Assembly: GCA_903856085.1 (NCBI GenBank)
Contig: CAIOAT010000044.1
Span: 25,402-89,401 of the forward strand
Reading direction: 5' to 3'
DNA from: Candidatus Omnitrophota bacterium
GTDB lineage: Bacteria; Omnitrophota; Omnitrophia; Omnitrophales; Aquincolibacteriaceae
Length of the DNA stretch: 64,000 nucleotides
Shown here: positions 40,604 to 62,700 of the stretch, piece by piece
Numbering within the stretch: position 1 is the stretch's first letter
Layout of the letters: each line of letters begins with the position of its first letter
Translations under genes and position numbers: made by a program
Notes under the pieces: generated by a model
Told to the model about the DNA's origin: nothing
The model's database searches: none
Seen by the model: the letters and a program-made list of their open reading frames with translations, nothing else

Positions 40604-40616
40604 GAGCTCGCCCGTT

Positions 40617-41880: not shown

Positions 41881-44800
41881 ATGGCTGGAACTTTAACGGA
41901 CGATAAAGCCCGACGACGAGAGCGTTTCTCGAAGCGTCTCATTGCGATCTTTGTTGTCGTTGTTTTTACGCTTTTTGACGCCGTTCGCTATGCTCCACAA
42001 GGCTATGCGAGCCCTATTGCTACAGTCGTTGATCCTGTCCTTGCGTCTGTTTCGATTCCCAAGGAACTTGGTAAGGTGGAGGAATCCTTTCGCGGGACTG
42101 CGGGCAAGACTGTGATCTTCATTGAGGACGCCCATGATTCCCTTGAAGCCCAGGAGAATATCGCAAAGCTTATCGGGAAGCTCGTAAAAGAAAATGGGAT
42201 CAAAACGGTTTTTGAAGAGGGCTACGAAGGCTCGGTTCCTACGGATAAGTTTTTTGGTTTTATTCAAGATCCCAAGATCAAACAAAAAGTCTCCTATTTC
42301 CTTTTGGATAAACTCCGTGTCGGCGGCGCGGAATACGCGCATATCAATCGGGTAAACGATTTCAAGCTGATCGGGGTCGAGGATCTCGAGCTGTACGGCG
42401 AGAATATCCAGTCCTACCGAACCTCCTCCCGAAATAGGCAAAGCATCGATGAAGACTTGAAAGAATTGTTTTCACAAATCGCCGTCCTTGCCGACCGGTA
42501 TTTTTCAAAGGAACTAAGGCGTTGGCTAAAGCACAAGGATCGTTTCGGGGAGGGGCAACTGCCGCTTCTTGATTATCTGAAAAGAACGCGTGACATCTTT
42601 CTTCAAAAGTGCTCGGCGCGCATGTTTGGGCAGCAATATCCGGCGGTGACGATCCTTCTCGCTGCGAAGTCATCGCGGGATCCGAAGCTTCTCGATCAGC
42701 TGAACACTTTGGATCTTAAGGTTGTTTTTGACGAAGTTTTGAGGTTGGAACGGGATCTTTCCAAGAGTTTTCTTGAAAATGAGAGAGATCGCAAGATCTT
42801 CGATTATTATCAGGCCCTGGGGCTTCTTAAGAGATTGAATCGAATCGAACTGACTCAGCCGGAATATGAAGCAGCCCAAGAGACGCTTCAGAAATTCGAG
42901 ACGCAAGAATTAGCGAATTTCATAGTATCTCTCACTCATCATTCATTGGTTCTTTCCAAAGAGTGGGAGCATCACATCCAGGATGCTATCCGGTTCTATG
43001 ACGTGGCGCACGGGAGAGATCGATCAGTCGACGTTCGTCTCAGAGAATTTCTTCGGAATAAAGAAGGAGATTCTGCGATTCTTGTGTTTGGCGGGTTCCA
43101 TGCAAGCGGCATCAAGGAGATTCTAAGGCAGCAAGGTCTTTCTTACATCGTAATTTCGCCGAAGATTACTTCCGTTGATAAAAAGCACCGGGATTATTAC
43201 AAACGGCTAATGTCCGAAGGTCGTCACTCCTTCGAAACCCCACTTCTCGTGGCTCGAGCCAACAGGTCTCCGGGCTATTTTTATTTAGCCGCCACAGGCA
43301 AAGAAGAATTTGTTCGTGCGGAACTCCGAGATATTGCTTCTTCCGTCAAGGCGCTTGGAGAGAACGCTGACTCGCTGCTGATTGAGCGCGGCCTCGCTGC
43401 ATTTGATCAATCGCGGGAGCATCAGCTTGTCAATGCAGAGACTGAAACATCGCAGACTCGTTCCGAGGTGCACTTGGATACTGTTCATTTAAGTGCTTTT
43501 CAGCCGGCGGCGGTGGTGAGCCGCCGTTCGGAGATGCGGGTGATGGAACCGGAAGTGCGAAAAGTTCTGGATGAAAAGTTCCAGGCGGTGGCGAATTTTC
43601 TCTCTGCTCGTGAAGAGTATATGCCGGGTCGCAATGTTCCCCTCCGAGACCAATGGGCTCCGACTGAGATCAGTAAGCTTGCGTTTTTAAAAGGGGAGAA
43701 GATCCTTGTCATGATTCTCGGGACGTGGGAGGACAAGGTCGCTTTTGAGGCCGCGCCAATCATCCGGGATCTTCGGGCCCGTGGTTATGATATCAAGGTT
43801 TTGACCAGTGGGAAATACGGGAACAAACCCGGAGTATTCTTTGATGCGCAGGGAAACCGGCTTCCTGAAGCTGTCGGTTACAAGCAAATCTTAGAAAAAG
43901 AAGGGGTGTCCGTGGATTTTGTGGAGCCTGATTCGACGAATTCTGGAGACAATATCCTGTTTTCCAAGAAAAAAATCGATGAGGCCGGATACAAGCCTGA
44001 TGTGATCATCGTGATGCAGAACGGGCTTCTTCAAAAGCGGGCCGGGTTGAGCATTGTCCGCCAGCATTTTGGGATTAAAAATGAAAAAGAAGAACATGAG
44101 GCCAAGAGAAAATTCGACGCCTCCGGCCTCCGGCTCATCAGCTACGCGCCCTATGTACCCAATGTTTCCGGACAAAGCGATCCAGAGGTCCTGCTAACTC
44201 TTGAATACGCATTAAAAGAGGTCGAAGCCCTGAAAAACTATCCCGCAATAGGATATACCATTCCTGTAGCGATCCCAGAGGATGTCCGCCAAGCAGCGGC
44301 AGATCTGACCGCAATGCTGGCTGAAATCAACAAGAGGATCGAAGAAAAAGCTAAAATTAAAGAGCATGTTTCTGACCTCGGGCAGGTGAAAGAGCGTCTT
44401 CGCACCAAATGGAATGAGGTTCGTTGGGTTCACAACAGGATTCCCGGGAAGAAAAATATTCCTGAGCCCGTTGGGCAATGGACTCAAGATGGTTTTTTAT
44501 GGAAAGGCATTTATAACCAGATTGATCCTCATGCTCTGGAAACAGCGATCGATCCCAATCCACCCGCCGGGCAAGAGCCGGCAAAACCAGGCTGGGTATT
44601 CGGGGATTATCCGGATGCCTCTCAAGTTCTTTTTACGGTGGATATCGACGGAGAACAAGGCAGAGTGCTTGTGGCTGGGGACGCGCAGCTTTCCAACGAA
44701 TCCCTTCTTATTCTCGATCGCGATACGCATCTGGTCTTGACGGATGAAAAATCCAATCTTTCGCTTTTGAAATTCCACAGGCGAAGCGGACTGAAAGGTT

Positions 44801-47800
44801 ATATCAATTTATGGGGGATAGGTCAGTTCCCGCGCTTGCACGATCATTTGGTTGAAGATATGCCCATCTTCGGATTACCGCTGAGAAAATCAGGCGGAAA
44901 AGTTGATGGTCTCGAAATGCAGGAGCTTGGGAATTATGCGGCCTCAACGCTGGTTTATACGGATGATGACGATGCGAAGCTTGCGGCGGTCATGGCCAAG
45001 ACCGCGCAGGAATTGTTGGAGGAAAAGATCCCGCATCAGGTGTTTCTTGCGGCCGGAAAGGTCATTTTTGTTCTGCGCGGTAGCGATCCACAGACGCTTC
45101 ATAAAGTCGAAGGGGAAAATTTCGCCGGACGGTACCTTACGGGTCAATTTGTCGGAGGGGTTGTCGGGTATCCGAAGGCGAGTGCCGATAAGATCACGCC
45201 TGAAAAATATCAGGACATAATGAGACGGGTTAGTCAGCCGGTCTCGATACGTGCTCGGATCATTTCAAATTTGCAACAGAAGGGGGTGGTTTCTCCTGCC
45301 CGGAATAATAAACGTTCCGAGATGCGTAAAGATACGGCGGAACAAGTGACGACCGAGATCTATGATCCGAAGCAAGCGGGGATCGATGTCAGTGTGAATC
45401 CCGTGCCAAGCGGGCATTTCCGGTATGACCAGGCGTCGAAACAACATTTCTGGGATGGAAAACAGGTTCTTTTTCGTAAAGACGAAGGCATTGCTAGAGA
45501 ATCCGCAGCTCCAGGAGCCCGGACTTGGCCGGTCGATATTGCCTGGGAAGAACATGAAAAAGATTTTGCGGCGGCTCATCCGTTGTTCGATCTTCACTCC
45601 TATGGAAATCTTTACAACAACGCTGGGTTTGTTGTCTTTGACGGGAAAACAGGCATGCTTTATTACCAGGCCGGGGAAGCCTTTGAGAAAAAAGCGTATT
45701 CGATGCTGGTTTCTTGGAACGATCGCACCGTTACCTCCGAGAATGTCCGTTTCGAACAGATCGCCGGAGGCAAGGCCGGTAAAGTTCAGGTGTTTGTTGA
45801 TGGGCAGTCGGGACCGATTCAGGACAAGATCCGGTTCGCGGTGTTCGGACAGAGATTAATCCACAAAGGCGCCGTGGTGCCTCTTGAGGCGGTCGCAGAT
45901 CAATTCGAGGACCTGTTTCAGCTTTATCGGCTTCCTCAATTCATGCAATGGAGAGAAAACGCGGCGCCAGTCTATGGACGAACGATCGGTGTGGAGGAGT
46001 TGGCCCGTTGGAGGACTACCGGCGATCCCAGGGACAAGGCCTTATTTATGGACGTTGTTCGTCATGATGGCTACATGGAGATTGATCTGACAGGTTATTT
46101 GCGGGAAGAAAAAGACAGCAAAGTCACTGTCAGGACCCTCAAAGAGATCAAGGACGGGGCTCTTACTCCGTTTGGCTATAAAGAAGTGGGGCTCGCGGAG
46201 CCGCAGGCGTTAAAGCGAGGCGAATATTTTATCCAAGACAACAGGCTGCATATTCGTTTTCTCCCTTATCCGTACCCGCATCATGTGCTCGGGATCACGG
46301 CATCGGGGAAAGTCGTTTCGGTTCTTTACATAGGAGACAAATATAAAAAACAGGGCGTTACGCTCCAAGACCTTCCTGAGAGCGTTCGCGAGCGCTATGG
46401 GAATCAGGAGAAAGATCCCATCCAGGAACTCCTCGTGATTGCGCAGGGTCGGGACAGTTTCCGCCGTCGTGACGGAAGACTTTCCGAACGCAGTCCTTAT
46501 ATCAATCTCAAGGGAACTGCCGCCATCCTTTTTGAACGGATCATGCCACCTGCCGCATCTACTTCTCAGGATTTGCTTGCGCCTCGCTCCGAGATGCGGA
46601 ATGCTGATGCGTCAGCGGTAGGCATGGCTGCTGTAAAACGACAAGCCATGGAAGCTCCCGACCCAGAGGGTTTCCTGAAAGTTGTAACAGCGTATCGCCT
46701 CGGAAAAGGATTGCTGACCACCGATAAGACTTTTTTCCTAACGGGTATTTATGACTTTCTTGGAAACACCGATCCCATTATCTCGACTCTGGAAGATATC
46801 GAAAGACGCACGAAGACCGGGCGGCAGCTTTTAGAGGACGTTTGGCAGGATCCTCAACAGCGTTCCAAGCTGTTTGATTTTGCCATTTCATACCATTACA
46901 GCTACACGCGCGAAGACCGGCTTCTAGAATTGGTTCGTAAACTTATCGAGGGGATCCAACAGCGGGGGGATTTTGCTTCGCAGGAAAAAATAACCATTCT
47001 GGACATAGGAACCGCTCCTAAGAAGTTTGGCTCTCCGACCTCGATGCAGACGATGGAAATGTTCCGCGCTGCTTTCCCAGACAAGCAAATAGAACTTAGC
47101 TCCGTAGACATGCAATTCCCAGCTTCATTTAAATTTAATGCCGAAGGAGTATATGTTGATGAGCGGACAGGTATCCGTTACGTCAACTACGACATCCGTA
47201 AGGGACCGTTGCCATCCGCTGATATTGTTATTGCCGTGAATCTGTTGGATCTTTATCAGGATGTTCAGGAGAGGAAACGTATTCGGAAGAATATTTTTCA
47301 ATCCAGCTTGAAGTATGTCGTTACTGGCGTCAAGAGTACGGAGGATATTTTCCGGCGTTCTAACGAGCAATCTGATCAATGGACAAAGATCGCAACAGTC
47401 CAGTTAATGGAGGAATGGTATGCGCAAAGTCTCTACCAAGGATTGGGTTTTTCTTCAGAAAACATAGGCTTCCAGAATTTGGCGGTGCGAAACGACTTGT
47501 ACGTCAATTACGAGTTCATGAAACCGCTTTTCGCGTTGCTCGAGAAGACAAAAACAAGCCGTTATCATGCCGCGTTCCAGGTTCTTACCGTGCTCTTTTT
47601 GCGCGGGGAATTGGAGGCACTTGTGTCGGGTGAGACGGTGAGTTTTCCAATGGAAGGCAGGCCTTTAGCAAAGTACTTTCCCGCAGAGAAGGATCGGGAG
47701 GTTATCCACCAGTTTCTGGTTTTTATGCAGGATCTGAAAAAGACGAGGGTTTTGAAGAATGAGGCATCGAACGATCCGAATCATGTGATCCCCCGGTTCT

Positions 47801-50187
47801 ATGAGTTGATCAATTTGTTTATTCTTGACCAGCACCAAAGGGGCGTGCTTCCGAAGTCTGGAAAAACATTGAAGATCTTATTACTCCAGGCAAGAGCGGA
47901 ACCGTTCGGATATGTTCCGGCCTATCTTCCCATAGGATTACCGGCACTGACGGCTGCTCTGAAAGGGGATGATTATCAGGCGCGCTTGTTCTCGCGTTTA
48001 TTGGTAGATCCCGATATTTACGAAAACTATTTAACCACGGATAAAGATGTTCGAGCGATCGATTTTCAGACCAAGGAGGCGTCATTTGAATTCGAAAAAT
48101 ATCTGTCGGAATTCAAGCCCGACATTGTCGGAATAAGAACGGTTTCAGCTTCCATCAAGGAATCCCAAAGGCTGGCCCGGGTCGCCAGGGCGGTTTTGGG
48201 GAATCATGCGCAGATCCATTTTGGAGGTTATCACATTACTGCGTTGCCAGAGGAAACGATGGCGGAGAACAAGGGGATTGTGGACGTTGGGTTTCTTCAA
48301 GAAGCTGAAGAATCCTATCCGCATTACTTGGCCATGTTCGTCAGCGGTCAGGATCCTGCCTCTGTGCCAGGGATATGCTATTACGACCACACCGGAAAAC
48401 TAGTTAAAACCGCCCCGAGAAGACCCGTGATCCCTTTTGATTATTATCCTTCCTTTATGGATTTTTTCGACATGCTTCCGGATCTTGATCGCTATGCGGA
48501 GCTGATCGTCGATAGCAAGCATGGGAAGATAACTTCCAAGATGGCTTTACTTGTGACGGAGCGAGGATGTAAGGCCCACTGCGCCTTTTGTCCGACTCGC
48601 ATCATGTTTGGCGCTTCGGGGATCAGATTTGATTCTGTCGAAACCGTTCTCAGCATTATGGAGGCCTATTATAAAAGGGGCTATCGGATATTCAATTTCC
48701 GGGATGATAATTTCACCGGGGATAGGCAGAGGGTGATGGCTTTGTCGGATGCCATTATCAAGAAAGGCTGGAAGATAGCATGGACATGCATGTCACGGGC
48801 CGACACGGTGGATGAAGAACTACTGACTAAGATGTACGACAGCGGCCTTTCGATGATCGCTTTTGGGGTGGAAAGCGGATCGGAGGATATTTTAAAGTCC
48901 ATGGGCAAGAGAGAGCTCTTATGGCCGATCAGAAAAGCCAATGTGTGGAGCCGGAAGCTAGGAATCTATTACAAAAATTATTATATGGTGGGTGCCCCAG
49001 GGGAGCAATGGCAGCATATCCTGAGGACATTGCTTTTCATGGCGGATTCCTTCGGAGGTTTTTCAACCATCAATCAAGCCGTTCAAGAAGGTCATGTCGT
49101 TAATGATGGAGAATATAGCGCAGCCTTTGATGGCTTGGTCAAAGAGGTTTCAGGTGCGGGGGAGGGCCTGGAACAATTCCTGACGAGGGAATTGAATTTT
49201 GTTGGGATGAAGCAGGATTCCGTTAACGTGGCTTACGCGATGCCGTATCCCGGTTCCACATGGTATAACCAGATAGGAAAAAAGATATGGATGGAGACCG
49301 ATCTTTTCCGGCATGGTCCCGCGGATCGCGACAATCTTGGCGTTTATAAATCTCCGACGCATACGGTAGAAATGACCCGTGAGGAAATTTCGGAAGCGAG
49401 GGAAGCGGTTGTGGGTTTTTACAAGGCTTTGGAGCAAAAAGATCGCGGAAAAATACTGGAGATCTTGGGAAAAGTTATTGGAAGAAGTCGCTCTGAGCTG
49501 CATGGACCGGAACGCAATCACGAAGAGCTGAAGACTTTGATTTCCCCATCAGGAAAACGTTCCGAAATGCGAGTTGCCCCAGAGGCGATATTAGGGGATG
49601 GCGGAACTCTTCGCGGGATCCCGAGCGCTAGTCCTGTAAAGGCTGTTTCTCGGGCGCGTGCTGACCGGATGATCCGGAGTGTCGGGAAAAATGTGCAGGG
49701 AGCAACGGTGTTCGTGGACGCGGAAGATTTTCCGAACCTCTCTCTGGAACAAAAACAGGAATATTTGATCGTGGCGCTTTCGAATAAAGCGCTTCACGTA
49801 GTAGTCTATAATGAGCATGAGCAGGTGCGTGACGAGTTGTTGGATGCTCTTCTCAAGCTTGACCGCGTGACGAGGACCGACAAAGACCTCGTCGGGGCCC
49901 AAATCAGTTTTGACCGGCCGAATGCGCCGAGCATTCATCTTTCCAAGCGGAACCTTCCATCCCCGGAAATGGTCCAACGTTTCAGGAAGAGGATCGCGTT
50001 TTTCAAAACGCAGGGACAAAATGGTGGAACTTTGGCTGCAGCGCTTCTTTGGTCGTGGTCGGGCGGGGAGGAATCCCGATTGAGGGAGGTGACCATGCAG
50101 GATGGATTCTGGGTCGTTGCTGAGTCCTTGGTTAATGCGCTTCAAGCCAGCTATGAAAGCAATCTTGCTTTTGCGGTCGCGGCCTAA
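41881..50187 (+). CDS. Giant (2768 aa) membrane-anchored multi-module protein G1 (module list in evidence)
   Basis: Single uninterrupted ORF with a GAGAGGA RBS and an N-terminal TM (LIAIFVVVVFTLFDAV). Modules: a TraB/GumN-like N-module, a DUF218/YdcF-like module, a phosphodiester-glycosidase-like module, a class-I methyltransferase-like module and a B12-binding radical-SAM module. The CxxxCxxC motif GCKAHCAFCP is at nt 48568-48591, followed by GYRIFNFRDDNF. R-S-E-M-R recurs four times at module borders. Confidence 0.85.
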   Translation: MAGTLTDDKARRRERFSKRLIAIFVVVVFTLFDAVRYAPQGYASPIATVVDPVLASVSIPKELGKVEESFRGTAGKTVIFIEDAHDSLEAQENIAKLIGKLVKENGIKTVFEEGYEGSVPTDKFFGFIQDPKIKQKVSYFLLDKLRVGGAEYAHINRVNDFKLIGVEDLELYGENIQSYRTSSRNRQSIDEDLKELFSQIAVLADRYFSKELRRWLKHKDRFGEGQLPLLDYLKRTRDIFLQKCSARMFGQQYPAVTILLAAKSSRDPKLLDQLNTLDLKVVFDEVLRLERDLSKSFLENERDRKIFDYYQALGLLKRLNRIELTQPEYEAAQETLQKFETQELANFIVSLTHHSLVLSKEWEHHIQDAIRFYDVAHGRDRSVDVRLREFLRNKEGDSAILVFGGFHASGIKEILRQQGLSYIVISPKITSVDKKHRDYYKRLMSEGRHSFETPLLVARANRSPGYFYLAATGKEEFVRAELRDIASSVKALGENADSLLIERGLAAFDQSREHQLVNAETETSQTRSEVHLDTVHLSAFQPAAVVSRRSEMRVMEPEVRKVLDEKFQAVANFLSAREEYMPGRNVPLRDQWAPTEISKLAFLKGEKILVMILGTWEDKVAFEAAPIIRDLRARGYDIKVLTSGKYGNKPGVFFDAQGNRLPEAVGYKQILEKEGVSVDFVEPDSTNSGDNILFSKKKIDEAGYKPDVIIVMQNGLLQKRAGLSIVRQHFGIKNEKEEHEAKRKFDASGLRLISYAPYVPNVSGQSDPEVLLTLEYALKEVEALKNYPAIGYTIPVAIPEDVRQAAADLTAMLAEINKRIEEKAKIKEHVSDLGQVKERLRTKWNEVRWVHNRIPGKKNIPEPVGQWTQDGFLWKGIYNQIDPHALETAIDPNPPAGQEPAKPGWVFGDYPDASQVLFTVDIDGEQGRVLVAGDAQLSNESLLILDRDTHLVLTDEKSNLSLLKFHRRSGLKGYINLWGIGQFPRLHDHLVEDMPIFGLPLRKSGGKVDGLEMQELGNYAASTLVYTDDDDAKLAAVMAKTAQELLEEKIPHQVFLAAGKVIFVLRGSDPQTLHKVEGENFAGRYLTGQFVGGVVGYPKASADKITPEKYQDIMRRVSQPVSIRARIISNLQQKGVVSPARNNKRSEMRKDTAEQVTTEIYDPKQAGIDVSVNPVPSGHFRYDQASKQHFWDGKQVLFRKDEGIARESAAPGARTWPVDIAWEEHEKDFAAAHPLFDLHSYGNLYNNAGFVVFDGKTGMLYYQAGEAFEKKAYSMLVSWNDRTVTSENVRFEQIAGGKAGKVQVFVDGQSGPIQDKIRFAVFGQRLIHKGAVVPLEAVADQFEDLFQLYRLPQFMQWRENAAPVYGRTIGVEELARWRTTGDPRDKALFMDVVRHDGYMEIDLTGYLREEKDSKVTVRTLKEIKDGALTPFGYKEVGLAEPQALKRGEYFIQDNRLHIRFLPYPYPHHVLGITASGKVVSVLYIGDKYKKQGVTLQDLPESVRERYGNQEKDPIQELLVIAQGRDSFRRRDGRLSERSPYINLKGTAAILFERIMPPAASTSQDLLAPRSEMRNADASAVGMAAVKRQAMEAPDPEGFLKVVTAYRLGKGLLTTDKTFFLTGIYDFLGNTDPIISTLEDIERRTKTGRQLLEDVWQDPQQRSKLFDFAISYHYSYTREDRLLELVRKLIEGIQQRGDFASQEKITILDIGTAPKKFGSPTSMQTMEMFRAAFPDKQIELSSVDMQFPASFKFNAEGVYVDERTGIRYVNYDIRKGPLPSADIVIAVNLLDLYQDVQERKRIRKNIFQSSLKYVVTGVKSTEDIFRRSNEQSDQWTKIATVQLMEEWYAQSLYQGLGFSSENIGFQNLAVRNDLYVNYEFMKPLFALLEKTKTSRYHAAFQVLTVLFLRGELEALVSGETVSFPMEGRPLAKYFPAEKDREVIHQFLVFMQDLKKTRVLKNEASNDPNHVIPRFYELINLFILDQHQRGVLPKSGKTLKILLLQARAEPFGYVPAYLPIGLPALTAALKGDDYQARLFSRLLVDPDIYENYLTTDKDVRAIDFQTKEASFEFEKYLSEFKPDIVGIRTVSASIKESQRLARVARAVLGNHAQIHFGGYHITALPEETMAENKGIVDVGFLQEAEESYPHYLAMFVSGQDPASVPGICYYDHTGKLVKTAPRRPVIPFDYYPSFMDFFDMLPDLDRYAELIVDSKHGKITSKMALLVTERGCKAHCAFCPTRIMFGASGIRFDSVETVLSIMEAYYKRGYRIFNFRDDNFTGDRQRVMALSDAIIKKGWKIAWTCMSRADTVDEELLTKMYDSGLSMIAFGVESGSEDILKSMGKRELLWPIRKANVWSRKLGIYYKNYYMVGAPGEQWQHILRTLLFMADSFGGFSTINQAVQEGHVVNDGEYSAAFDGLVKEVSGAGEGLEQFLTRELNFVGMKQDSVNVAYAMPYPGSTWYNQIGKKIWMETDLFRHGPADRDNLGVYKSPTHTVEMTREEISEAREAVVGFYKALEQKDRGKILEILGKVIGRSRSELHGPERNHEELKTLISPSGKRSEMRVAPEAILGDGGTLRGIPSASPVKAVSRARADRMIRSVGKNVQGATVFVDAEDFPNLSLEQKQEYLIVALSNKALHVVVYNEHEQVRDELLDALLKLDRVTRTDKDLVGAQISFDRPNAPSIHLSKRNLPSPEMVQRFRKRIAFFKTQGQNGGTLAAALLWSWSGGEESRLREVTMQDGFWVVAESLVNALQASYESNLAFAVAA

Positions 50188-50579
50188 TCGAACCAATGCT
50201 TATTCAGTCTTTTTTGTGATTTTAGCTGATTAAAACCATCAGACATCCTCTTTCCATGCCTGCGGAGAGTTGCTGTATTTTTTAAATGCCTTTTCGTCGA
50301 AGTTCTCGGCGGTTTCTGGCAAGCTTTCACTAGTAGGCCCCTCCTGAATTTCAAAAAAATCTTCAAGCTTAAAATTGGTTAATTTTAAAAAACTTTTTAT
50401 TATCATGATAAATACGCTTATCTTAAAAATCAAATTTTAGCCAAAAAGTCTCTGTTTTGTGTGTTTCATAATGCTATAAGAAATTATAAGGAATATTTTA
50501 TAAGTTAATATATTTTAAAGGAGTGTTATAACCAGTTGCTTGGTAACAGGTTACATCATTAAATTTTTTTTAGCTTTGC

Positions 50580-50714: not shown

Positions 50715-53700
50715 ATGATCAGCTGGCAGCAACCGATGATCAAGCCTTGGCTAAGAACCGTCGCCTGCCTGACCGCCTTTGTTTTTCTTTTTACGAGCGT
50801 GGTCTGGGATGGTGGCGTCAAAGCCTATGCCGCCGCCTCTAATTCCGTAAGCGTCACCCCCATCGAGACATTCAAAGCCAATGCCGCGTCTTCTCTGATC
50901 GACCGTCCCGATCTTCCGGACAGCTACGGAACGATCAAGGGAACTTTTAAAGGGAGTCGCGACCAGATTGTCCTTCACATCCAGGACGCGCACGTCAACG
51001 ATGAAGCCCAGCGCAACATTGCGCACATCCTCCAGTATTTTTCCGAGAAATACCAACTTGGCCTCGTGAGCCTTGAGGGTGCCTCCGGCGAACTTTACCC
51101 CGAACTTTTTTCTTTTTTCCCGAACAAACAGGCTCGCCAGAATGTTGCCGATTACTTCCTGAAAGAAGGCCGCCTCACGGGTCCAGAATATCTTGCGATC
51201 GTCGAAAAGCCCGCGATGACGCTTTATGGCGTGGAAGATAAGGAGCTTTACGAGGAAAACCGGAAGGCCTATGTGGATGCGCTCCAGTTCAAGGACCGCG
51301 ATGAGAAGATCTTGGCGGAACTGAATAAGGTCCTTGAAGGCATCAGTCGTTTTGTGTTTCCCGAGGAAATGCGCGAACTCGTTCGTCGCCGTGCCGCGTT
51401 CCAAGAAGGCGGACCGGAGCTGGTCTCTTATGTCCGCTATCTGGTGGAACTTGCCCGTAAGCACAATATCGCGCTTGATGAATATCCCGGGATGCACTCT
51501 CTGATTAAGCTGGTGGATCTTGAGAAGCAGGTTGATTTCGACAAGGCCGAAAAAGAAACCGATGCATTGATTAACGATCTCAAGCATGTGCTGACGCATG
51601 AGAAACTCTCCCGCTTTCTCACCAACACCGTTCACTTCCGTATGAAGAAGATGAAACGCGCCGCCTATTATGGGTACCTCCAGGATGAGATCCAGGGCGT
51701 GAGCGTGGCTCAAAGTGGCGGGGAGGAACTGACTACCAAGTACGCCAATGTGATGGCCTATGTGGAGTATATGAAACTTTATGATGCGATCGATGTTTCG
51801 ATCTTTGACGAGATCGATTTCCTTGAGAAGACCGTCAAGAACAAGCTCTTCACGAATCCTGAGCAGGTCCAACTCGATCACATCCTTCGAATCTATGACA
51901 TCTATTGCAAGATGTTCGATTTTACATTGACCAAGCAGGACGCCGAGTTCTATTACACCTATCAGAATGAGTTCAAGTCAGAGACTTTTGTAAGTTTTCT
52001 CACACCGCTCATGTCGAAGTACCACTTCACCTACGGATTGCCGTCCCAAGTGAAGACACTCGATCAGGATCTGCCGCGCGTGGAGCGCTTTTATAAAGCC
52101 GCTCTGGAACGCGACCAGGTGTTGATCGAGCGAGCGGTTGAGAAAACCCTTGCCAGCGGGCAGAAGATATCCGCCATCGTTACAGGCGGTTTTCATACGC
52201 CCGGGATCGAGAAGTACCTTCGTGAGAAGGACATCTCCTATATAGTAGTCGCCCCGCGTATCACCAAGACGATTGATAAGAAAAAGGAAAGCGCGCTCTA
52301 TGACGCCGCTTTGCGCCAAGCCCCGCTTTCGATCGAAAAAGTTCTCACGGAAACATTTCTCCAACCCAAAACCGGCGTTCTGAACGATCCTCGGTTCCAG
52401 TTGCAGGCATGGTTGGCGATTTCTCCCAAAGGAGAATTTGATTTCAAGTCCGATGTGGCTTTGTTCTTCCCCCTGACCGCCGCAACGAATATTTTTGAAG
52501 TCGTGAATGCGGCAAGAGAGCAGGCCCGGCAGGAGGGGAAGTCGCTCTCCAATGAGCAGATCACACCCTTAGTGGCCAGCGAGATCGAAAGGATGAAAAA
52601 AGATGCGGCCAGGGATTTGTCGGGAGGTGATCTGAGTAAAGTCGAGGCGTTGCTCAGTATGTTTCACCCCGAAGCATTCTCAGGTAATGTGCTCTGGGTA
52701 CCTGCGGGAAACAGTGGGGACTTCCTGGCTTTTGTGCTCCACGGTAAGACGGAAAAAATAAGCGAAGAACCGGGAGCTGTGCGGGGGACTCGACAGACTG
52801 TTTCATTTGGGCCAGAAGAAAAGACAGCGCTGTCTTTCTATCGGGTGCGTGGCTCTTTTGTTCCGGACGCGATCAGAGGAATGGTTCGTGCTGAGGCGCG
52901 TGTTCTGGCGACCCCTCAGACAGGACCTATTGCGGTCGTGGCGGGTCCAAACGCGAAGCAAGAGGCTCGTGATCGAGAAATAGCAGCCCAGATCCAAGCG
53001 ATCAGGGCGGAAGCCAGGATGAAGGCAACAAAGGAAGACGTCAGGGCCGCGGCTAGAGTTCAGGCGAATCTCCCCATGTTTTTGGATTTCATAAAAGCAT
53101 TTGGCTATAAAGGCCCCATCGATAGGATCCAGGCCGCAGTGATAAGGCCTGCCGATCCCAAGGAAGATAAACCTACGGTCGAGTTCCTGAAAATTCTTTC
53201 AGATCCTGAACTCAAACAGCGTCTCCAGGCCCTCGCAGTATTCTTGTCATCATTGAATCCGGAAGAGCTTGCGACAAAGAAATTGTCGCAGAATGAGTTG
53301 CGTCTCTTCTTGCTCTGGGGGGCTAAAGCTAACGGGCTCAAAAAATATCCGGAACTGGCCAAGATTTTAGAGGACATTCTCGCAGGTCGAACCCCGTCCG
53401 TTTCGCAGGCTGCGACTCCTGCAGAGGTTTCTGCGGCAAAAGCTCCTGCGGTGACTACTCCTGCGGCTATTCCTACAGCAGCAACTCTTGCAACCGAAAC
53501 GGCGGATCAGGTCAAGGCGCGGGTTGAAAAGGAACAGGGCGGTTACTTCGGCTCGTATGTCCGGCGCGGAGTTCTCGGGTGGAGTGCTGTCGGACTTATC
53601 GCCGGATTACTTTTGGGGATGATCATGCCGGCCACAGTGGTAGCTTTTCCACTTGTTTTCGGATTCGTAGCGTTCGTGTTGCGGGCGTTGAGGGCCTGGT

Positions 53701-56700
53701 CTGTTAAGAGTGGGATCACCGTTCAGGCCAATCCGAAGGGTGCCGGATGGATTGTCACTTCAGCAAACGGAAAGAAATGGCTCGAAGGTCTTTCGGCTCC
53801 TGATTTGTCGACGATCCAGGATAAAAACGAACAGCGGCAGGCTTCCATTGATTACAAACTTCAAAATTGGCCGGCATATCGGAAAATGCACGAAAGTAAA
53901 ATTTTCAGCGATGATTCCGAGTCCGAAGCTGCCGCTAAGGCTGAGGCATCCGCAAAGAAAAGGATCCTCCAGTTTGTGGGGATTGGGACGGCTGTAGGCG
54001 TTATTTTGGGGGCCACGACCGTACTTCCCGTGGTGGCGACAGTTGCTGTTTCCGCGATAACCGCCGGGTTTTTAGCTGCCGCTGTGTTGAAAACACGGGC
54101 GGAGTGGAAAAAACAGGGCGGGACGCAGAATATAATGAAGCAGGGTGTTTTTACGGCGATCGGCCTTGCTCTCAAAATTTTTGTGAGCATGCCCTTTCAT
54201 CTTCTTGATGGTTTTATCCTCCAATATTTCCGCCTTCGCATCAATTATTTTATCTTGGGCGCCAAGAATCAACGCTGGATCACGAATGCCGAAACGCAAG
54301 CGATGGTTGAAAATGCCAGGACCCATGAAGCCGATAAGAATCTTTCACGGACAGACCGTTTTATCCGTACGGATCTGGGATACGGGATCTGGGTCACACT
54401 CCAGGCTTCGCAGATCGCCGCTCTCTATGAATTTTTTCAAAAACGGGCCAAACTTTTTGTCTATGGCCAGCTCAGTGGTATTGTTTTAACAGCCGCCGGA
54501 ACCTCGCTTCCCGTCTTCGCGGTTTTGGGCGTCGGATTCTGGGGCTATATTATTGTGAAGCAGGTTCTAGCTTATCGTGCCGCCCAGGCGAAGGGACAAA
54601 ATCTGCCGGCCCATTGGCTCCGGAATCGCATTCTCGGGCATTTGATCTTCGCGACGATCTTTGGCGGTCTGATGTGGCTGGGCGTTTCTCCTCCGTCCTG
54701 GGCTGTGGCGTCTCCGGGTACCGGAGATGTGGCCACGAAAGCGTTGAATCTTTTTGGAATACCCATACCCTCTTTTCCCGCTATTCCCGGCGTCCCTCAT
54801 TTTGATCTTCTGAATCTTGGGGCCGTAATTCAAACGAAGGGCACGATATTTGGATTTTTAGGGGATAAGGTCCACCTCACTTTTCAGGCCATTGCCAGCT
54901 CTGCAACACTGAATTTTCTTTTGGCAGTGACGACTCAGATCCCGAACAAAATGCGTGAGATCATGATGCGCGACACGATGGTCGATATGGCCCGCATTTT
55001 AGTTCCCCAAGCAAAAAATCTTAAGGAAGCATTCGACGGGCTTGCCAAGTATGGGATCACACCCTCAAATTTTTCTCTTTCGGGGATTTTGGCTCTGTCG
55101 GGTGAGAAACAAACGCCGGAATGGATGGCCCTTTCTGCTGAGCAGCGGGCGATTGTTCTCAAGCTTATCGAGCGCGATCTGAAGGATCGCATTTATGGAA
55201 TGAACCGTTACGATGCGGGGCTCGCTCTTACCGCTCTGGGTCGCGCCATTCGTGAAAATGATCCCGAAGGTCAGGTTTCTATTCCCGAAAAACTCGCACG
55301 AGGACAGGGGATTGGCTATCGCATGCGGGTGAACGCCGCCGCTCGCCGTGAAGTTTTAACGAGTGGGTCTTTTTGGGTTTCGATGGTTTTTGGGACTTTT
55401 TCGATGTGGGTGGTGACGCACGAGATCGCGGCTATCGTTCATTATGCTGAAGGTATTGATAAAATAATCAGTTCGGCTTTGGGTGTGGATTTTCATCTTT
55501 TCGGTACAGGTATTAAAGGGATCGAAGGAGACCAGTTGAAGCAGAAGGAACATGCCGAGATGGCCCAAAGGGGAGAGCATGTTGCTTTCACGGATCGTTT
55601 GATCGCATCGGGACTGCTCAGTAGTCTTCAAACGAGTGTACAAGAAGTCTCCACGAACTTTGTGGTGCAGCCTTACATGATCGCCAAGCGGACGGCAGAT
55701 CAATTGCCGGCCATAAAAGCGAACCTTGGGAAAATAGCGGATGAACGTTTTGGTTTTGCGCCCACCAAGGCAAAAGCTGATTTTATTGACAGCGCTCACC
55801 GGCAAATTGCCGTAATGGAAAAAGCAACTTACTGGTCTATTGTTGGCCAGAAATTGGAGGGGGTTGCCCATTTTGCGGGATCGGCGTTCAATGCATTAGG
55901 CTCTGTCCTTGTGACATCGGCGAGAGCTGAATCGTTGCCTCCGATGATGGTTCCACAAACTGAAGTCAAGGAAGGTCTGCAAGCCGAAATTCCGGCAACG
56001 AAACCTGCTGAAGTTGCGGCGGTAGCGCCTGTTCTGCCTGCTCCCGAGGCGCCGAGAGTTTCTGTTGAGGCTCCGGCGGAAGTAACGAAACCGGCTGAAG
56101 TTGCGGTGGTTGCTCCTGTCCAGCCTGCTCCTGAAGTGCCGAAAGCTGAAGTCAAAGAAGCCCCTGCGGTTCCTGAAACTGCGTTGAAACTCGAAATGCC
56201 TTCGCCGTCGTTGAGGCCTCTGACGGATGTTCAGCCTGCTCCTGAGGCGCCCAAAGTTTCCGTTGAAGCTCCGGCGGAAGTAGCGAACCCCAAAACGGTG
56301 GCTCAGCCGGCGCTTCCGACAAAAATATTTGAGATTAGTCGGGAGAATGTGAGGGAGGGGGCAAAAGGTGCGGAGCGGATTGCTGCGAAAACTATTGTCC
56401 TGACTCTCAAGGCCGAGGATATGGAAGCGCTTATTCGAGAAGGAAAGGCTCTTGCTTTTTCATATAAGGATAACGGGTTCTGGAAAGCGAAGACCAAAAT
56501 TCCGAGAGCTTTGAATGATCCCGAGGTCACACACTTCAGTATTGGTAATGATGTCTATAAGATCGGTTTACCCACGACGGTGGTGGGTGTGCAGGCGACT
56601 CCAAAAGCTGTGACGTCATCCACTTCAGTCAAAGCCCCTCAACCCGTTGCCGCGAAGCAATCGCCTGCCCAAAAAATCGGTTTGGCCGCTGCGGCGGCCG

Positions 56701-59700
56701 GTCCCGTGGCTGCTGCGTCAGAGTTGTTCGTTTCCGCGCTGGAGCCGGCCTCGGCAAAATTTACCACCATGGATCTTCCTATGCCGACGACGGGGATACG
56801 CGATATTTTGATTACTGCCATGAAAGATAATCCCATGTCGCGGCAGGCTGGGGTTGAAAAGGGCATTAAGGATAAAACCGTTGAGTCGTTCGCTTGGTGG
56901 TACCGCTGGATCACCCTAGACCTGCAAGTTTCATATAATTTTATGCCGCGCGATCTTCCCTTGTATCAGAATAAGTCCGGATCGGGACCCAGCAAAGATG
57001 TGGATTTTTCATTGGGTTGGGAGGATGCCGGAAGCGGGAACATAAATCTCGGGCTTCCGATCTATTCCCCCGAGGGATATCCCGCCGAGCACATGGAGGC
57101 TGTTCCTATTCTCGATGCGAATGGACAACCGACCGGGGACACAGCGCTTGTTAGCAGACCGGGTATCCCCACAACGCCATTGACGCAAAGTCAGTTTGAT
57201 GCGCTACGGGGCGTGACTTTCACTCCAGACGGCAACAACTATGTGCTGTCGGGATATCAGCCCGTGCTGGATAGTGTTGTCATTCCGATGGGAGATGTCA
57301 ATATCACCAAAGGGCTCCTGGTGCAAAACCTGAATGCGATCGCCGGGAACGAAAGCTTTTGGAAGCTCTTCAATCTCCCTGCCGGCACGGCTTCCCAACT
57401 GGTCAGTGATCCGGCCTATCAAAAGGCCATGGGATTTGCGAGCTATTTTGCGTCGCGCTATGACAACCCGCTTAATACGGGCGATAACCTCAAAACTGTT
57501 TTTAAAGGCGCGACTCTTCCGCAGATCATGGAATCGATGGCGCGCATGAAAGCGACGGCAAGAAAGAATCTTGGCCGTGATTTTAGTTTGGATAATCCCT
57601 ATGATGCGGCGCTTCTGACTTATCTTTCCAGAGCGGATCTCACGGATCAGGCGGAAGGAACTACGATCGTCCGCGAGATCTTAAAAGAGCGGGATTGGGA
57701 AGCGAAACTGATCCTGCGTTTTGAACCCCTGAACCTGGCTCGAAGCCGCCAGGCGAAGATCAGCAAGGCGGAAGCGGAAGCTGCGAATGCGGACCTCCTG
57801 AAAACCGAGACGACCGTCCTTCGGAACACTACCCAGCAGCTTTATGTGATCGCGCTGGCGAATCAACAGATTGCTGACAAAGAAAAACTTATCATAGCGT
57901 TTGAAGCGGACGATGCCGAGCAGCGCGCTGTGCGGGGTGTCGAGGATAACTCCCTGACGCATACCCGCATTACAAGTGAACTCCAAAAACTCAAGATCCA
58001 GATCATCGTCCTGAAGACCGAGCGGGACGAGGCCAAAAGGAAAGTCCTCGAACTGGCGGGGCGGCAGCCGGGTATAGATCTGGGTTATCCGGTCGAGGAC
58101 ATTACTCTTAAAGTCGTCGGTGATGCTGTTGCCCAGGTACCACTTTCGCAGGCCGATGTTCAGGCCGTGATCGAAAGAGCGTTCGCGAGTTTGCATCAGG
58201 CCGTGGCATCGAAGGCAGCGCTAGGTGGAATTGACGCAACTTTGGCCGTTCCGCAAGTCACCGTTGACATTTTAAGGATGGCAGGGATATGGGACCTCGG
58301 CGATAAGGTTGCCGTCGAGATCCGCTTAGATCTCAGTTGGCAGATCAAAAGTCTTTTTGAGAGTAAGGTTGCAAATGCCCTCTTTGAATCCGAAGCCTAC
58401 AAGTTCGCGTCACGCCTTCGCGGGATCTACGAACGGCATAACCTGCTTGAGCGAGAAAGTGTCCATACCGCAGAATTTATCAAATCGTTGGAAAATGGGG
58501 TTTCAGCGCAGGATCGTTTGATTGCTGAGATCAAGAACGATTCTAACAAGCACTATCGCCGAGATCTGAGTCTTGTGCAAGCCCAGAAAGACCGGGAGAA
58601 AATGCAGGAAGACCTCGACGGTTCCAGGCTGGCTCTCCAGTTGATTCAGGATGAGTTGCGGAATTATACAAAAACGGACGCCCAGATCGGGAAGCTGCTC
58701 GGAGAATTCACCAAGAAGGATTCCGGACGAGCGAAGATCATACAGACCGCGATTAGCGCCATGCGGGCCGATGTCGCGAAGGCATGGGCTGCTCAAGATT
58801 CTGTAAATCGTGATGCTATGATCCAAGAGGCTCAGACTCTGGCGGATCGATTAGCTTCGAGCGAGGCGGAATCGGCGCGGGTCCATGAGGAGATCTTACG
58901 CGAAGCAGATTATAACCTTGCCAGCATTCGTAAAGATGCAAAACTGGATGCCCTCAATTATAACGTCTCCAATTGGCTGCGACTTTCCTTGTCGGGTGGA
59001 ATCGGTTGGGGGTGGGGAGATCGAAATGAAAAGGATATTACGCTTGAAGCGACGCAGTGGAAATTACGCGCGGACGCTCAGGCGACCGCCAAAGTTACTT
59101 TGTATGATCCGACACTTTGGGCAAGAGGTCGTCAGCGGCAATTGGCCCAAGATACTGCTAAAAAACTTTTAGACCGGTCAGGTGCAGAACTGGCCGCGTC
59201 CGTCTCCGGATGGCTGAACAATGTTCGTCGTGAATCCGAACTCCTCAATCTGACCGAAGCGACATTGAAGACGAAGCAAATCGAGCTTAAAGGCGCCAAG
59301 GACGAGGCCGATGCCGAGTTGGGTCGTACTACGCCGGCCAAGGATCGTCTGGCGGTCTTAGCAAAGTCTGAAGGAGAGCGTCAAAAGCTTTATTCCTGGC
59401 GGGCGAAGGTCAGGATCGCCAGCGCAGAGGCGAATGTCGAAGCGGCGAGGATCAAGGACGAGGCCGCACGCAATAATCTTTTCAAAGTCATGATGCAATT
59501 CAAGTCGTTTGCTTTTGCCGGGGATAAATCGCCCGCGGCAGCAAAGCCGATTGCTCCCTCTAAGGAGGCGCAGCCGTCGATCAGCATGTCACCTTTTGCA
59601 CCCATCACGGATGCCGCGGGTAGAATCTCTGAATCCGGGACTGCACAACTGAAGATTTTGGCCAAGGATTTTGACGAACTATTTCGCAGCCTCGTCAGGG

Positions 59701-62700
59701 AGACAGAGGATCAGACTTCGGGTATGGGGAGCATGAGCACAAACCGGCTCCGGTACGAACAGCTTTATGACGTGAACCGCTTGCTGATGCCGCTTCAGTC
59801 CCGTTTGTCCTTGAATGATCAGGAACAGGTTCAGAAGATTCTTGGGATTTTGAAGAGTATCGATCCGGAAAAAAATGCTTCTTTGGGCAAGGAATTGTCG
59901 ACGATCGGCCGGGCGATTTTGACCAATGAAAAACTTACGGATCGACAGAGAGTGGAGAAGCTTTTTAAAGCATTTGAAGGGAAACTCGATGCTAAAAAAT
60001 ACCCGGCTCTCCGGCAACAGCTCATGAGTGTCCGAACCGCCATGTTGCACAGTGATGAAGCGATGGTAAACGAAGTTCTAAAAGCCATACCGGGGGCGAT
60101 GGATCCCGCGAAATATCCGGAGATTTTCAAAGCCAGCCGCGAGCTCCGGGCGATGCAAGCGAAGCTCGTCGCTCGGATCAAGGAAATCCAGAACCCGAAA
60201 CTTACGGCTACCGAAAAACTCAATCGACTGACCGAGCCCCTGCAGAGCTATCTTGAAAAGCAGAAGAAATTTCAGCAGCTTTTCCAGGTCGTAGAGCAGA
60301 CGGCCCTCATCGACAGGGAGTTGAAAGATATCCTTGAAAATTCCAAGGGCTACTCGGAGCCCGTACGGTTGACGATGCTTACCGGAGTGATCAGGGATTA
60401 TCTTGCCGCGGAGATCCTTTACGCCAAGAGCGACTATTTCATTAAAGATCACAAACCAAAATTGTGGAGAGAATTCGAAAAAACACGACGCCAGATCAGC
60501 GAGATTTCAAATATTGCCGCGGTCGAAGAGGTTATGCGCAAACTGGACAGCTCGGTTTGGGAAAAGAGGGAATTTGCCCATCAACTGGGCCTTGAAAAGT
60601 GGGCGTTCGGGGTCAGCGTTGGTTACAGCATTGGTTTTACCAAGGATGGCGTCTCGTCGACGTCTTTCGGGGTAACTCCATGGTGGGGGATGATGCCGTG
60701 GGCGGCGGACAAAGCCATTGGGTGGGTTCCTTTGCTCGGGAAACCGATCACCGATATTCTAGGCGTCAATCAAGATGGAAAGAATATGCAGATCCGGAAA
60801 TACATGACCGACATGAGTATCGGCGTGTTGTCGGCAGAGCAGACCCTGCGCAGCCTGGATATCACCTCAAGCCAGTTCCGGAATGAATACGCCTATTTGG
60901 TCCGGATGAAGCAGCTAACCACAGGTTTGGCGGCGGCGATCGAGGCATGGAGAAACCAGCATAAAGAGTTTTTGAATACGATCGGTGTGGATGCTACCGA
61001 AGCGGCGCTTTCCGGGGATACGACCATGGAGGCGCGTCAGCTTGCCGAGATTCTTAAGCTTGAAGAAAAAATACGGCACATCAACGGAGAATTAAGGAAT
61101 GTTCAGAACCGGTTGAGAGAGCACGGTGTGGATCCTGAAACTGTGACGACCGAGGGAGTGGCCAACGGCGATGATGTGCGGCAAGCGTGGCGGACGGGGA
61201 AGGGTCCGCTGGCAGGCCACGTAGGCGGTATGGAATCCCTTGGAACCACGGGGGGGGAGACACTTGATGATATTGCCCGGCAATCCACCGAGTATCAGAT
61301 GGCCGTGTTAGGGCAGAAAGTTTCGGCAATGGAAGAGGAATATACGACCCGCACGCACAGTTTTGGAGATTTTCCAGGAGTCACTTCATCCGGTCTCTTT
61401 TCCGATAATCCGTTCGATTCACCCGTCCGTGCCTTTGGCCAGGTTGAGAGGATCGATGGGGTTTATGATTCAGCGGGAACACGGGTTGGCACACAAACGT
61501 TCGATGTTACCGCGACCGATCTTTCGAGGACCATCACAGTCGATCTGAATCTGGGCGAGATTCTCGGAGGGTTCCAGGGGTCGGTTTACCGTTTGCGTGC
61601 TGAGAATGCCGGCATTGAGGCCGAGCGGATCCTGAAGGAAAAGAAAGCGGAGATCGCGCAGGCCATTTTTGATTATGAAACAGAAGCCGCGGCGATCGAG
61701 AAGATGGAACCTCAGGATCGACTCATGGTTTACGCGATCGTGAGCGGTAATCAAAAGCTCCAGGCGACCCTTCAGGCGACTCGAGGTGAACTTTTACAGA
61801 CCGAGAGTGAGATCCACGGCGCGGCAGTGCGATATATGGAAGCTCGCAATACGCTCAACAGCAAGAAAAGCGAACTTTTGGGGAAAGTCGGGTTCCGGAT
61901 CGAGAAGCTCCCGGATACGAGTCGTGAGGAAGGCCAGGGTTTATCACTCATCGGCGCAGATGAAATGCTCAAGGCCATGACTTCACCTGAAAAATCAAAG
62001 GCGTTCGTGGAGAAGTTAAAGAGTACAGGGATGCAAGATCCGAAGATTCAGACGCTTCAAAATGAACTGGAGCAATTGTCTCTGAATCGCAGGAGCCTCT
62101 GGAGCGATGCGGTGACAAGCGTGTGGTTCCAGGGCGGCTATCAGGATAGTGCGCTAAGAGCCAAGGCAGGGCTTGATCGCCGGCTTTGGGGGGGCGACAT
62201 GTGGGTTCGACTTCACGAAAACAAGGAACGTCAGGCTCAGGTTCGGATTGCGATGGAGGCCCAGGATAACAAGACTCGTCACGCATTTGAGACCTACCGT
62301 GCGAGGCTCAAGAGTACAGATGCTCAGGTGCAGCTCGACCAGGAACGCTTGAATGATCTCATGAAAAGATTCCCGGAGGTGACCCAGGGCGGGTTGGTCC
62401 GCGAGGTTGGGATCGATTTCGCGTTGGATTTTATGCGGGAACTGAATGAATCCTACCGGGCTTATTTTTTCGCGGTCAGGACGCATGCCCGCAACCAGCT
62501 GGAACTGGTGCAATTCCTCAATCAGAACAATATCGATGTCTCCAAGGTGGGTCTTGAATGGACGGACACCGCCATTCCAATGTTGCCCGTCGTCCCGGAG
62601 GTCGCAAAAGACATGACGGCTGGGACGGTCGAGAAGATTACCGTTGGGCCAGGGCAGGAAATAGATCTGGATACTTTTAAACAGCCTGATCCCGCAAAAA

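Follow-up and report, generated by a model that had tools for sequence, protein, structure and literature searches.

A strict pentapeptide at the unit boundaries of very large modular Omnitrophota proteins, a possible processing site of exported polyproteins

The window, the whole stretch of 64,000 nucleotides analysed from contig CAIOAT010000044.1 of a Candidatus Omnitrophota bacterium, carries a gene, G1 (41881..50187, + strand; open reading frame list and translation), for a protein of 2768 amino acids (aa) in which the pentapeptide RSEMR occurs four times. Its family-wide form, R-[S/A]-E-[M/L/V/A/I]-R (hereafter RSExR), constitutes a short linear motif peculiar to a single, very large family of modular Omnitrophota proteins. 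The carriers share one layout, composed of a predicted Sec signal peptide, a conserved N-terminal module (N module), a first RSExR, enzyme cargo split by further RSExR copies and, in G1 and its closest relatives, a last RSExR and a conserved HAD-like C-terminal module (C module). Because the site is strict, occurs once per unit boundary in accessible linkers, delimits complete enzymes, increases in number with the cargo and differs in preferred form between lineages, we favour, with a probability of about one half, the reading that RSExR motifs are endoproteolytic processing sites of exported bacterial polyproteins. The sequence-only reading that first noticed the four copies had offered three explanations: the motif might be a site that is recognised or cleaved, G1 might be a polyprotein that is processed, or the repeat might be a conserved linker between modules. 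This idea is supported by the present analysis: recognition at the level of the peptide is well founded, and from it and the placement of the motif we infer cleavage.

A recount located the exact RSEMR copies at aa 549-553 (43525..43539), 1145-1149 (45313..45327), 1569-1573 (46585..46599) and 2560-2564 (49558..49572), all on the + strand and in the neighbouring contexts originally quoted for them; announced as a hexapeptide, the motif has five residues. They split G1 into the N module, blocks of 591, 419 and 986 aa, and the C module, as had been described. From the composition of G1, 0.001 copies are expected (Poisson P 5e-14), and in 300 shuffles of the protein no 5-mer reached four copies, the maximum being three, once. 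With four copies against 0.001 expected, chance or composition is rejected as the origin of the repeat. The synonymous variation reported between the copies is present (CGT TCG GAG ATG CGG; CGT TCC GAG ATG CGT; CGC TCC GAG ATG CGG; CGT TCC GAA ATG CGA). A basic or proline residue indeed precedes each copy in G1 (R, K, P, K), but this does not hold across the family, in which the preceding position is weakly biased (A 0.19, S 0.13, V 0.10).

The distribution of the motif was followed in 120 relatives of G1 (359,491 aa) and in a genome set comprising the 80 best of 147 relatives in GTDB species genomes (loci L001-L080), with open reading frames (ORFs) obtained by simple longest-ORF calling. The 120 homologues contain 542 copies of RSE[MLIVA]R versus 3.0 expected. 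The leading R-x-E-x-R pentamers among them were RSEVR (148), RSELR (141), RSEMR (133), RSEAR (78), RSEIR (42) and RAELR (36). In the sequence logo the information is confined to five positions, and the residues on either side show no conservation beyond a slight richness in S, A, P and T; the second position is occupied by S (0.83) or A (0.17), and the residues at the fourth follow the frequency order V, L, M, A, I. Within the cargo regions RSEMR is enriched 612-fold, RSEVR 206-fold and RSELR 146-fold, and no unrelated enriched 5-mer besides the RSExR forms was found there. In the 80 loci, 360 strict copies were counted over the 230,576 aa encoded by N-module genes (1.56 per 1000 aa); the 28 copies in the 175,519 aa of the other ORFs all reside in 12 ORFs, which are mostly pieces of big genes at locus edges. 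The ordinary proteins of the window have no copy in 12,514 aa, and the motif is accordingly not spread at similar density over the proteome, an outcome that the sequence-only reading had named as fatal to its proposal. Two stray six-frame occurrences in the window, an RSEMR at about 4354 (- strand) in an Arg-rich antisense frame over murB/ddl and an RSEIR at 29884 (+ strand) in a short frame between an S26 peptidase gene and a SPOR-domain gene, are probably due to chance and non-coding.

Named homologues of G1 are labelled Candidatus Omnitrophota or Omnitrophica, with the exception of two labelled Verrucomicrobiae. The 80 genome loci come from metagenome-assembled genomes named Omnitrophota/Omnitrophica or without a name, one of them labelled Planctomycetales, and several of these genomes hold multiple paralogues; a few relatives in the N-module family are labelled Elusimicrobia. 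A HMMER scan with the N module retrieved 7343 cluster representatives (50% identity) at E ≤1e-3, with lengths up to 6720 aa. Two proteins from outside Omnitrophota (P0212 and P0213, from Elusimicrobia and Endomicrobium), relatives of the type of N module found in the neighbouring gene G2, are about 1000 aa long and contain no R[SA]ExR copy (n=2). These two sequences hint that the motif may be younger, or narrower in range, than the N module.

The copies are placed at the boundaries between units. In an all-against-all BLAST comparison beyond the N module, 38% of the alignment endpoints lay within 30 aa of a motif, compared with 9.1 ± 1.5% when motif positions were random. In four relatives 15 independent Pfam domains were recognised, and every one of them falls inside an inter-motif segment (P 0.0002 under random placement). 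Several fit closely: in Bac_transf units of 210 aa the domain starts 19 aa past one motif and stops 12-13 aa short of the following one, Epimerase units leave 7 aa to the next motif, and an NDK unit measures 179 aa. The median motif spacing, 315 aa, equals a typical protein in size. The number of motifs grows with the length of the cargo, from 0 in cargo-less N-module proteins to 3.5 with 1-2 kaa (thousand amino acids) of cargo, 6.0 with 2-4 kaa and 10.3 with 4-8 kaa. The outermost copies are fixed with respect to the end modules, the first one following the GGFH of the N module at a median distance of 113 aa and the last one lying, in 30 of the 33 relatives with a C module, 4-79 aa upstream of it; the cargo between them is freely variable. 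Orthologues without the motif at equivalent positions, the other finding that would have counted against the original proposal, were not what the family presented.

The boundaries are flexible as well. In the AlphaFold2 (AF2) model of G1 the motif-bearing stretches aa 512-560 and 2535-2584 have a predicted local distance difference test score (pLDDT) below 50 and lie between confident domains; structure prediction of the inter-module linkers, suggested at the outset, returned low confidence for the motif stretches. Across the family, disorder propensity peaks at the motif (0.17-0.18 versus 0.085). Several autonomous units in one ORF, joined by a short conserved site at junctions in accessible linkers, are the attributes of a polyprotein. 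Alignment starts cluster at or just past the motif, which indicates that it travels with the downstream unit. This would also suit a purely structural element at the start of each module, for instance a helix cap or a salt-bridged turn, that has no external reader, and in a conserved segment of the N module (RAELRDIASSV...) the motif does begin a helix. We nevertheless consider such a role very improbable: most copies are found in low-confidence, disorder-prone sequence without conserved flanks to provide contacts, and a local function does not predict that one variant is fixed across unrelated units and old paralogues.

This fixation is evident at the fourth residue. Its uniformity within one protein is 0.46, versus 0.22 by chance, and the fraction of copy pairs with the same variant is 0.523 between genes of one genome, 0.477 within a gene and 0.225 between genomes, a result that none of 2000 label permutations reached. 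The genome JAUYMS uses RSELR in 31 of 32 copies distributed over five genes, CAYSSX in 27 of 27 copies over three genes, and a third genome prefers RSEAR; the genome of the window is 'tolerant', with RSEMR in G1 and RAEAR in G2. The paralogy is old, since the paralogous N modules of one genome are 43-52% identical and often closer to copies from other genomes. Intragenic duplication is ruled out as the cause of the uniformity within proteins, as the uniformity extends genome-wide across unrelated cargo. At the same time, the 15-mers coding for RSELR are distinct in 31 of 32 and 27 of 27 cases and employ all six Leu codons and both the Ser and the Arg codon families. This diversity under a fixed peptide bears out the protein-level conservation claimed for G1, and it excludes gene conversion or a recombination scar. 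Variant uniformity at the genome level combined with synonymous diversity implies purifying selection on the peptide, exerted by a reader of lineage-differing preference; as the preferred variant is uniform within a genome, the preference of the reader is lineage-specific.

The same data bear on the explanation that the nucleic acid is the conserved entity, either as a 15-nt scar of recombination or cassette shuffling or as an RNA signal, with the peptide incidental. The modules have clearly been shuffled among paralogues, and a modest codon bias exists (CGY, TCN, third-base G): the first Arg is encoded by CGY in 79% of copies (background 41%), Ser by TCN in 94% (background 69%), and position 4 has G as its third base in 59%. 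All synonymous codons occur, and the flanks are unconserved. With every synonymous codon family represented, with almost all coding 15-mers distinct in the RSELR-fixed genomes, without nucleotide conservation in the flanks and with about 8 of 15 bases fixed, all at peptide-constrained positions, the nucleic-acid explanation is barely credible, and the 15-mer diversity largely refutes it. An internal translation start at position 4, where 50% of codons are NTG, was rejected on similar grounds: neither a Shine-Dalgarno-like sequence nor flank conservation was found, and Ala, Ile and non-NTG Leu/Val codons are common.

A peptide reader could also be a modifying enzyme, and the motif might then regulate the linkers through phosphorylation or glycosylation of Ser, modification of Arg or methylation of Glu. 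The motif is short, strict and disordered like many modification sites, and the argument from genome-level uniformity applies to such a reader equally. Ala replaces Ser in about 17% of the copies, however, and the relative P0124 uses RAEVR in 15 of 16, which argues against Ser as an essential acceptor; boundary placement and scaling with cargo likewise have no obvious rationale in a modification site. We regard this alternative as quite improbable. The occurrence of Ala in 17% of copies and in whole proteins also disfavours self-cleavage with Ser as the nucleophile.

Several attributes of the carriers point outside the cytoplasm. Family N-termini combine a basic n-region with some 15 residues of hydrophobic core and a (G/S)(Y/F)A site, and G1 follows the same n/h/c pattern. 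According to the hydropathy scan, its predicted Sec-type signal peptide (41881..42009, + strand; aa 1-43) has a basic n-region, the hydrophobic stretch LIAIFVVVVFTLF and a likely cleavage site GYA|SP; the AF2 model places a helix at aa 8-34, and the scan found no hydrophobic segment in G1 besides this N-terminal one. Cysteine is scarce, with 0.22% in G1 (6 Cys in 2768 aa), 0.05% in the visible part of G2 and 0.15% in 81 related genes, versus 0.75-0.94% in ordinary neighbours. Signal-peptide-like N-termini and Cys depletion together suggest that the proteins of the family are exported, and topology predictions for longer Omnitrophota relatives agree with export (bioRxiv 10.64898/2026.06.07.730766).

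The N module (42058..43413, + strand; aa ~60-511 of G1) is the constant element of the family and was found in 118 of 119 relatives. Its AF2 model (mean pLDDT 78.7, core mostly 85-95) has a parallel beta-sheet core flanked by helices, with a large helical insert, and presents a TIKI/TraB/ChaN/Ere-like fold. The catalytic signature of this superfamily consists of two His and two Glu at the C-terminal ends of core strands (PMC6254334). The invariant residues of the N module include D83-x-H85, E112/E113 and H407, which follow strands 77-83, 109-112 and 398-404 of the model. The spacing of 28 residues from H85 to E113 is that of Bcr135 (H85/E113) and RRSP (H3902/E3930), while the first acid is Asp instead of Glu. 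At the sequence level the N module lies outside every Pfam-A (2025) and NCBIfam (2026) model; no Pfam TraB/ChaN/Ere match was obtained even at E up to 5, nor any NCBIfam or PDB-sequence profile match. The TraB-like call made for this part of G1 consequently stands by fold only. An RAELR copy (43315..43329, + strand; aa 479-483) is located inside the terminal helix of the module (475-495, pLDDT ~70-84), in a conserved R[SA]ELRAIASSVEALGD segment.

At the opposite end, the C module (about 180 aa; in G1 49633..50184, + strand, aa ~2585-2768) forms the exact C-terminal end in 32 of the 33 relatives having it. Its predicted structure shows a HAD Rossmannoid fold, in which motif I, DxDx(T/V), is not kept: the position reads VFVDAEDF (D-x-E-x-F), with the second Asp and the Thr/Val lost. 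The module ends in a flexible and nearly invariant ...AxAA-COOH tail, which we take to resemble the nonpolar tags that tail-specific or ClpX-type proteases recognise at C-termini.

We propose that the chain would be exported under its single signal peptide and that, once outside the cytoplasm, cuts at the motifs would release the N module, the individual enzymes and the C module. The candidate reader and protease would be the N module, working both in cis and in trans: it is the only domain found with the motif in every case, it retains the His/acid residues of active TIKI-family hydrolases, and two characterised members of the superfamily, RRSP and Tiki, are site-specific endopeptidases (PMC6254334). 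An unlinked single-copy protease is equally open as an alternative reader. A farther-reaching version, in which a large share of the extracytoplasmic enzymes of Omnitrophota would be exported as Sec-targeted polyproteins, self-processed at RSExR by a hitherto unrecognised TIKI-like N-terminal autoprotease, with the same code in giants of 10,000-147,000 residues, is possible rather than probable. If true, it would represent a cellular polyprotein strategy with a readable cleavage grammar, and giant ORFs could be parsed in silico into mature products.

A number of observations weigh against the processing reading, or at least against the N module as its agent. No column of the N-module alignment separates the Leu-only genes from the others (the best reached 62% versus 6%, among 8 Leu-dominant genes), and the N module as specificity determinant is not supported by this comparison. 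Genome-level uniformity across old paralogues fits one unlinked reader more simply. No gene family recurs beside the 80 related loci, and no conserved neighbouring protease gene was seen there. One R[SA]ELR copy sits in the folded N-module helix (G1 aa 479, helix 475-495) and some C modules contain an internal copy; cutting within such folded, conserved elements would seem unlikely or harmful. An exported B12/radical SAM enzyme, as carried by G1, needs an Fe-S cluster and a reductant and is hard to reconcile with activity outside the cytoplasm. Lastly, we infer cleavage from a sequence pattern and not from observed products. Trypsin cuts after both Arg of the motif, and native cuts would be hidden in standard tryptic data.

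Part of this evidence would suit a docking motif on a chain that remains intact, in which a partner (e.g. a chaperone, a factor for export or tethering, a component of the surface layer, or the N or C module of the protein itself) binds RSExR in the linkers and organises an array of enzymes like beads on a string. A strict motif in flexible linkers is compatible with docking, the uniformity of the variant within genomes suits any peptide-binding reader equally, and the copies in folded elements (helix aa 475-495, the internal C-module copy) are easier to understand for binding than for cutting. Yet one copy per boundary, a copy number proportional to cargo and units that are complete enzymes form the pattern of processing sites, and neither a candidate binding domain nor a repeated reader domain matching the repeat of the motif was identified. 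Docking is thus an unlikely account of the motif.

The processing reading, applied to G1, divides its cargo as follows. The N module is followed by the linker aa 512-560, disordered in the AF2 model, which contains a degenerate copy, RSEVH (43459..43473, + strand; aa 527-531), and RSEMR copy 1 between N module and cargo block 2. In the alignment the degenerate copy corresponds to the family's first canonical linker motif, and the homologue alignment columns at R527, E529 and R531 of G1 are nearly invariant. Cargo block 2 (43540..45312, + strand; aa 554-1144) yielded a weak DUF218 match (Pfam E 2.3e-5, under the curated cut-off) and is otherwise unassigned, and the PDB sequence search found no relative of it. 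Cargo block 3 (45328..46584, + strand; aa 1150-1568), bounded by RSEMR copies 2 and 3, is unassigned to any family, as Pfam and PDB sequence searches gave no match. A segment homologous to it occurs in the relatives P0031, P0014 and P0003 at different positions along the chain; the BLAST matches of G1 to P0031 and P0014 start at aa 1126 and 1152, around copy 2, and stop at aa 1560 and 1590, around copy 3.

Cargo block 4 (46600..49557, + strand; aa 1574-2559) begins with an unassigned part, for which Pfam and PDB searches returned nothing significant, and continues with a B12-binding domain (aa 2017-2144; PF02310, 43.8 bits, cut-off 32.1) and a radical SAM domain (aa 2228-2386; PF04055, 58.4 bits, cut-off 29.5) with the cluster motif CKAHCAFC (CxxxCxxC). 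This is the layout of class B radical SAM enzymes, and these two are the only Pfam domains above threshold in G1. The NCBIfam matches, to HpnJ, ApyD and other B12-radical SAM families, are partial and far under the cut-offs; judged by its domains, block 4 is a complete B12-radical SAM unit that reaches no NCBIfam equivalog cut-off. Hence, among the domain calls initially proposed, B12-binding and radical SAM are confirmed by Pfam and DUF218 is sub-threshold, whereas phosphodiester-glycosidase and methyltransferase were not confirmed. A second degenerate copy, RSELH (49489..49503, + strand; aa 2537-2541), lies in the low-pLDDT stretch 2535-2584 together with RSEMR copy 4, which is situated in the low-confidence linker ahead of the C module. 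Both RSEVH 527 and RSELH 2537 are about 22 aa upstream of a canonical RSEMR.

The sole near-identical match of G1 is P0001, an ENA metagenome protein with 99% identity. Hundreds of further relatives, of 1.5-4.8 kaa, share only the first ~500 residues, and their enzyme domains differ wildly. A gene for an S33-type alpha/beta hydrolase lies directly upstream of G1 and also adjoins the G1 orthologue on the P0001 contig.

Downstream, the second very large gene, G2 (50715..64000, + strand; ATG at 50715), encodes more than 4428 aa and runs off the window. It starts with a signal peptide and a paralogous N module (~50900-52400) and continues as long helical sequence. RSEMR is missing from the visible part of G2, as had been noted, but the family variant RAEAR is present twice just after its N module (52887-52901 and 53004-53018, + strand). 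These copies are followed by five hydrophobic helices (~aa 970-1330) and then by more than 3000 aa in which no further motif was found; the visible part of G2 had no Pfam match. Orthologues of G2 are 500-1500 aa long or partial and have one R[SA]ExR after the N module. The 527 bp between G1 and G2 (50188-50714) belong to the lowest-GC stretch of the window (0.46 for 50001-52000) and contain long A/T runs; a promoter-like site, TTGACT-17-TATATT, is located at 50580-50608 ahead of G2, and no terminator-like hairpin was found after G1 in this intergenic region.

Up to ~41 kb the window is an ordinary bacterial chromosome, including a dcw cell-wall/division cluster, glycine cleavage genes, UvrD, several peptidases and lipid metabolism; the two very large + strand genes come thereafter. 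Peptidase genes in the window (16971-19273, 29187-29852, 40560-41453) comprise M48 (HtpX/Ste24-like), MA-clan, S26 signal peptidase and S33-type hydrolase members. The sequence-only reading had suggested a search for a protease of matching specificity nearby. A linked protease was rejected as reader: among the S26, S33-type, M48 and MA-clan genes there was no adjacent or motif-specific candidate and none could be tied to the motif, and no neighbour recurs at the 80 loci.

Known systems resemble the G1 family in part. By mode of operation, MARTX toxins and viral polyproteins come nearest, and G1 belongs to neither group. In the TIKI/TraB/PrgY/ChaN/erythromycin-esterase superfamily, the N module stands apart by the lack of a profile match, by an insert of ~220 helical residues, by Asp as the first acid instead of Glu, and by its fusion upstream of kilobases of cargo. 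Multi-core RiPP (ribosomally synthesised and post-translationally modified peptide) precursors such as those of cyanobactins have a fixed recognition sequence of 4-5 residues at each unit boundary, with units of 6-10 residues that are macrocyclised. The units of G1, in contrast to such peptides, are whole enzymes of 200-1000 residues, and no RiPP machinery was seen among the window genes near G1.

The MARTX (multifunctional autoprocessing repeats-in-toxin) toxins of Vibrio and relatives are, like G1, secreted bacterial proteins of great length in which unrelated effector or enzyme domains follow one another, and their inter-domain linkers are cut by a protease domain of the same chain. Moreover, the MARTX effector RRSP has the TIKI-type fold also predicted for the N module. 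In MARTX the linker sites are loosely defined (cleavage after Leu) and are not a fixed pentapeptide. G1 further differs from MARTX in lacking Pfam matches for RTX repeats and for the cysteine protease domain, in its predicted export by a Sec signal peptide instead of type I secretion, in a C-terminus predicted to be a folded HAD-like domain, in a cargo of metabolic-type enzymes and not of known cytotoxic effectors, and in belonging to a different phylum. By analogy, G1 is not a MARTX member but may work like a MARTX toxin.

The giant proteins of the same phylum ('Archaeovorins'; 'multi-enzyme metabolic cluster') have signal-peptide or transmembrane N-termini like the G1 family and share with it a repertoire of radical SAM, NUDIX, PPDK_N, HAD, epimerase, glycosyltransferase and HEAT domains. 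The published classes start at ≥10,000 aa or ≥30,000 aa, compared with 2768 aa for G1 and 1.5-6.7 kaa for its relatives here (largest 6720 aa). Under the definition of the 'multi-enzyme metabolic cluster' (bioRxiv 10.64898/2026.06.07.730766), G1 and the relatives found here are shorter than the required length of ≥10,000 aa, and the family has the many distinct enzyme Pfam domains tiled along one chain and the signal peptide and/or transmembrane helices, in Omnitrophota proteins. G1 is the same phylum-specific phenomenon as the published giants, below their size thresholds. A term search of texts on these giants (PMC10066038; bioRxiv 10.1101/2023.11.21.568195; bioRxiv 10.64898/2026.06.07.730766) found no mention of the motif or of an N-terminal TIKI-like module, the C module is likewise not reported there, and the strings RSEMR and RSELR retrieved only unrelated acronyms from the literature. 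The motif is undescribed in the searchable literature; site-coded polyproteins are a known kind, and here they would occur in a cellular, exported setting. Post-translational cleavage has been suggested for giant or long Omnitrophota proteins, with one account calling the cleavage points unknown, and whether such very long proteins persist as a single chain or as many cut products is explicitly left open (West-Roberts et al.). The strict boundary pentapeptide provides a concrete hypothesis for the positions of the cuts, a rule by which ORFs can be divided into candidate mature enzymes ahead of structure prediction and annotation, and a peptide substrate with which the protease could be found. 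The analysis has in addition brought to light a large protein family, with 7343 cluster representatives, and neither Pfam nor NCBIfam includes its TIKI-like N module.

Viral polyproteins, processed by cis-encoded site-specific proteases such as picornavirus 3C and potyvirus NIa, share with the G1 family one ORF for many products, a short strict site in accessible linkers at every junction and a consensus that co-varies with lineage. No homology to viral proteases was found in the G1 family, which differs from the viral systems in occurring in a cellular organism, with many paralogous polyproteins per genome and exported enzymes as the products. If confirmed, the G1 family would constitute a polyprotein system of cells, with multiple paralogues and one fixed code for its sites, of a kind otherwise characteristic of viruses.

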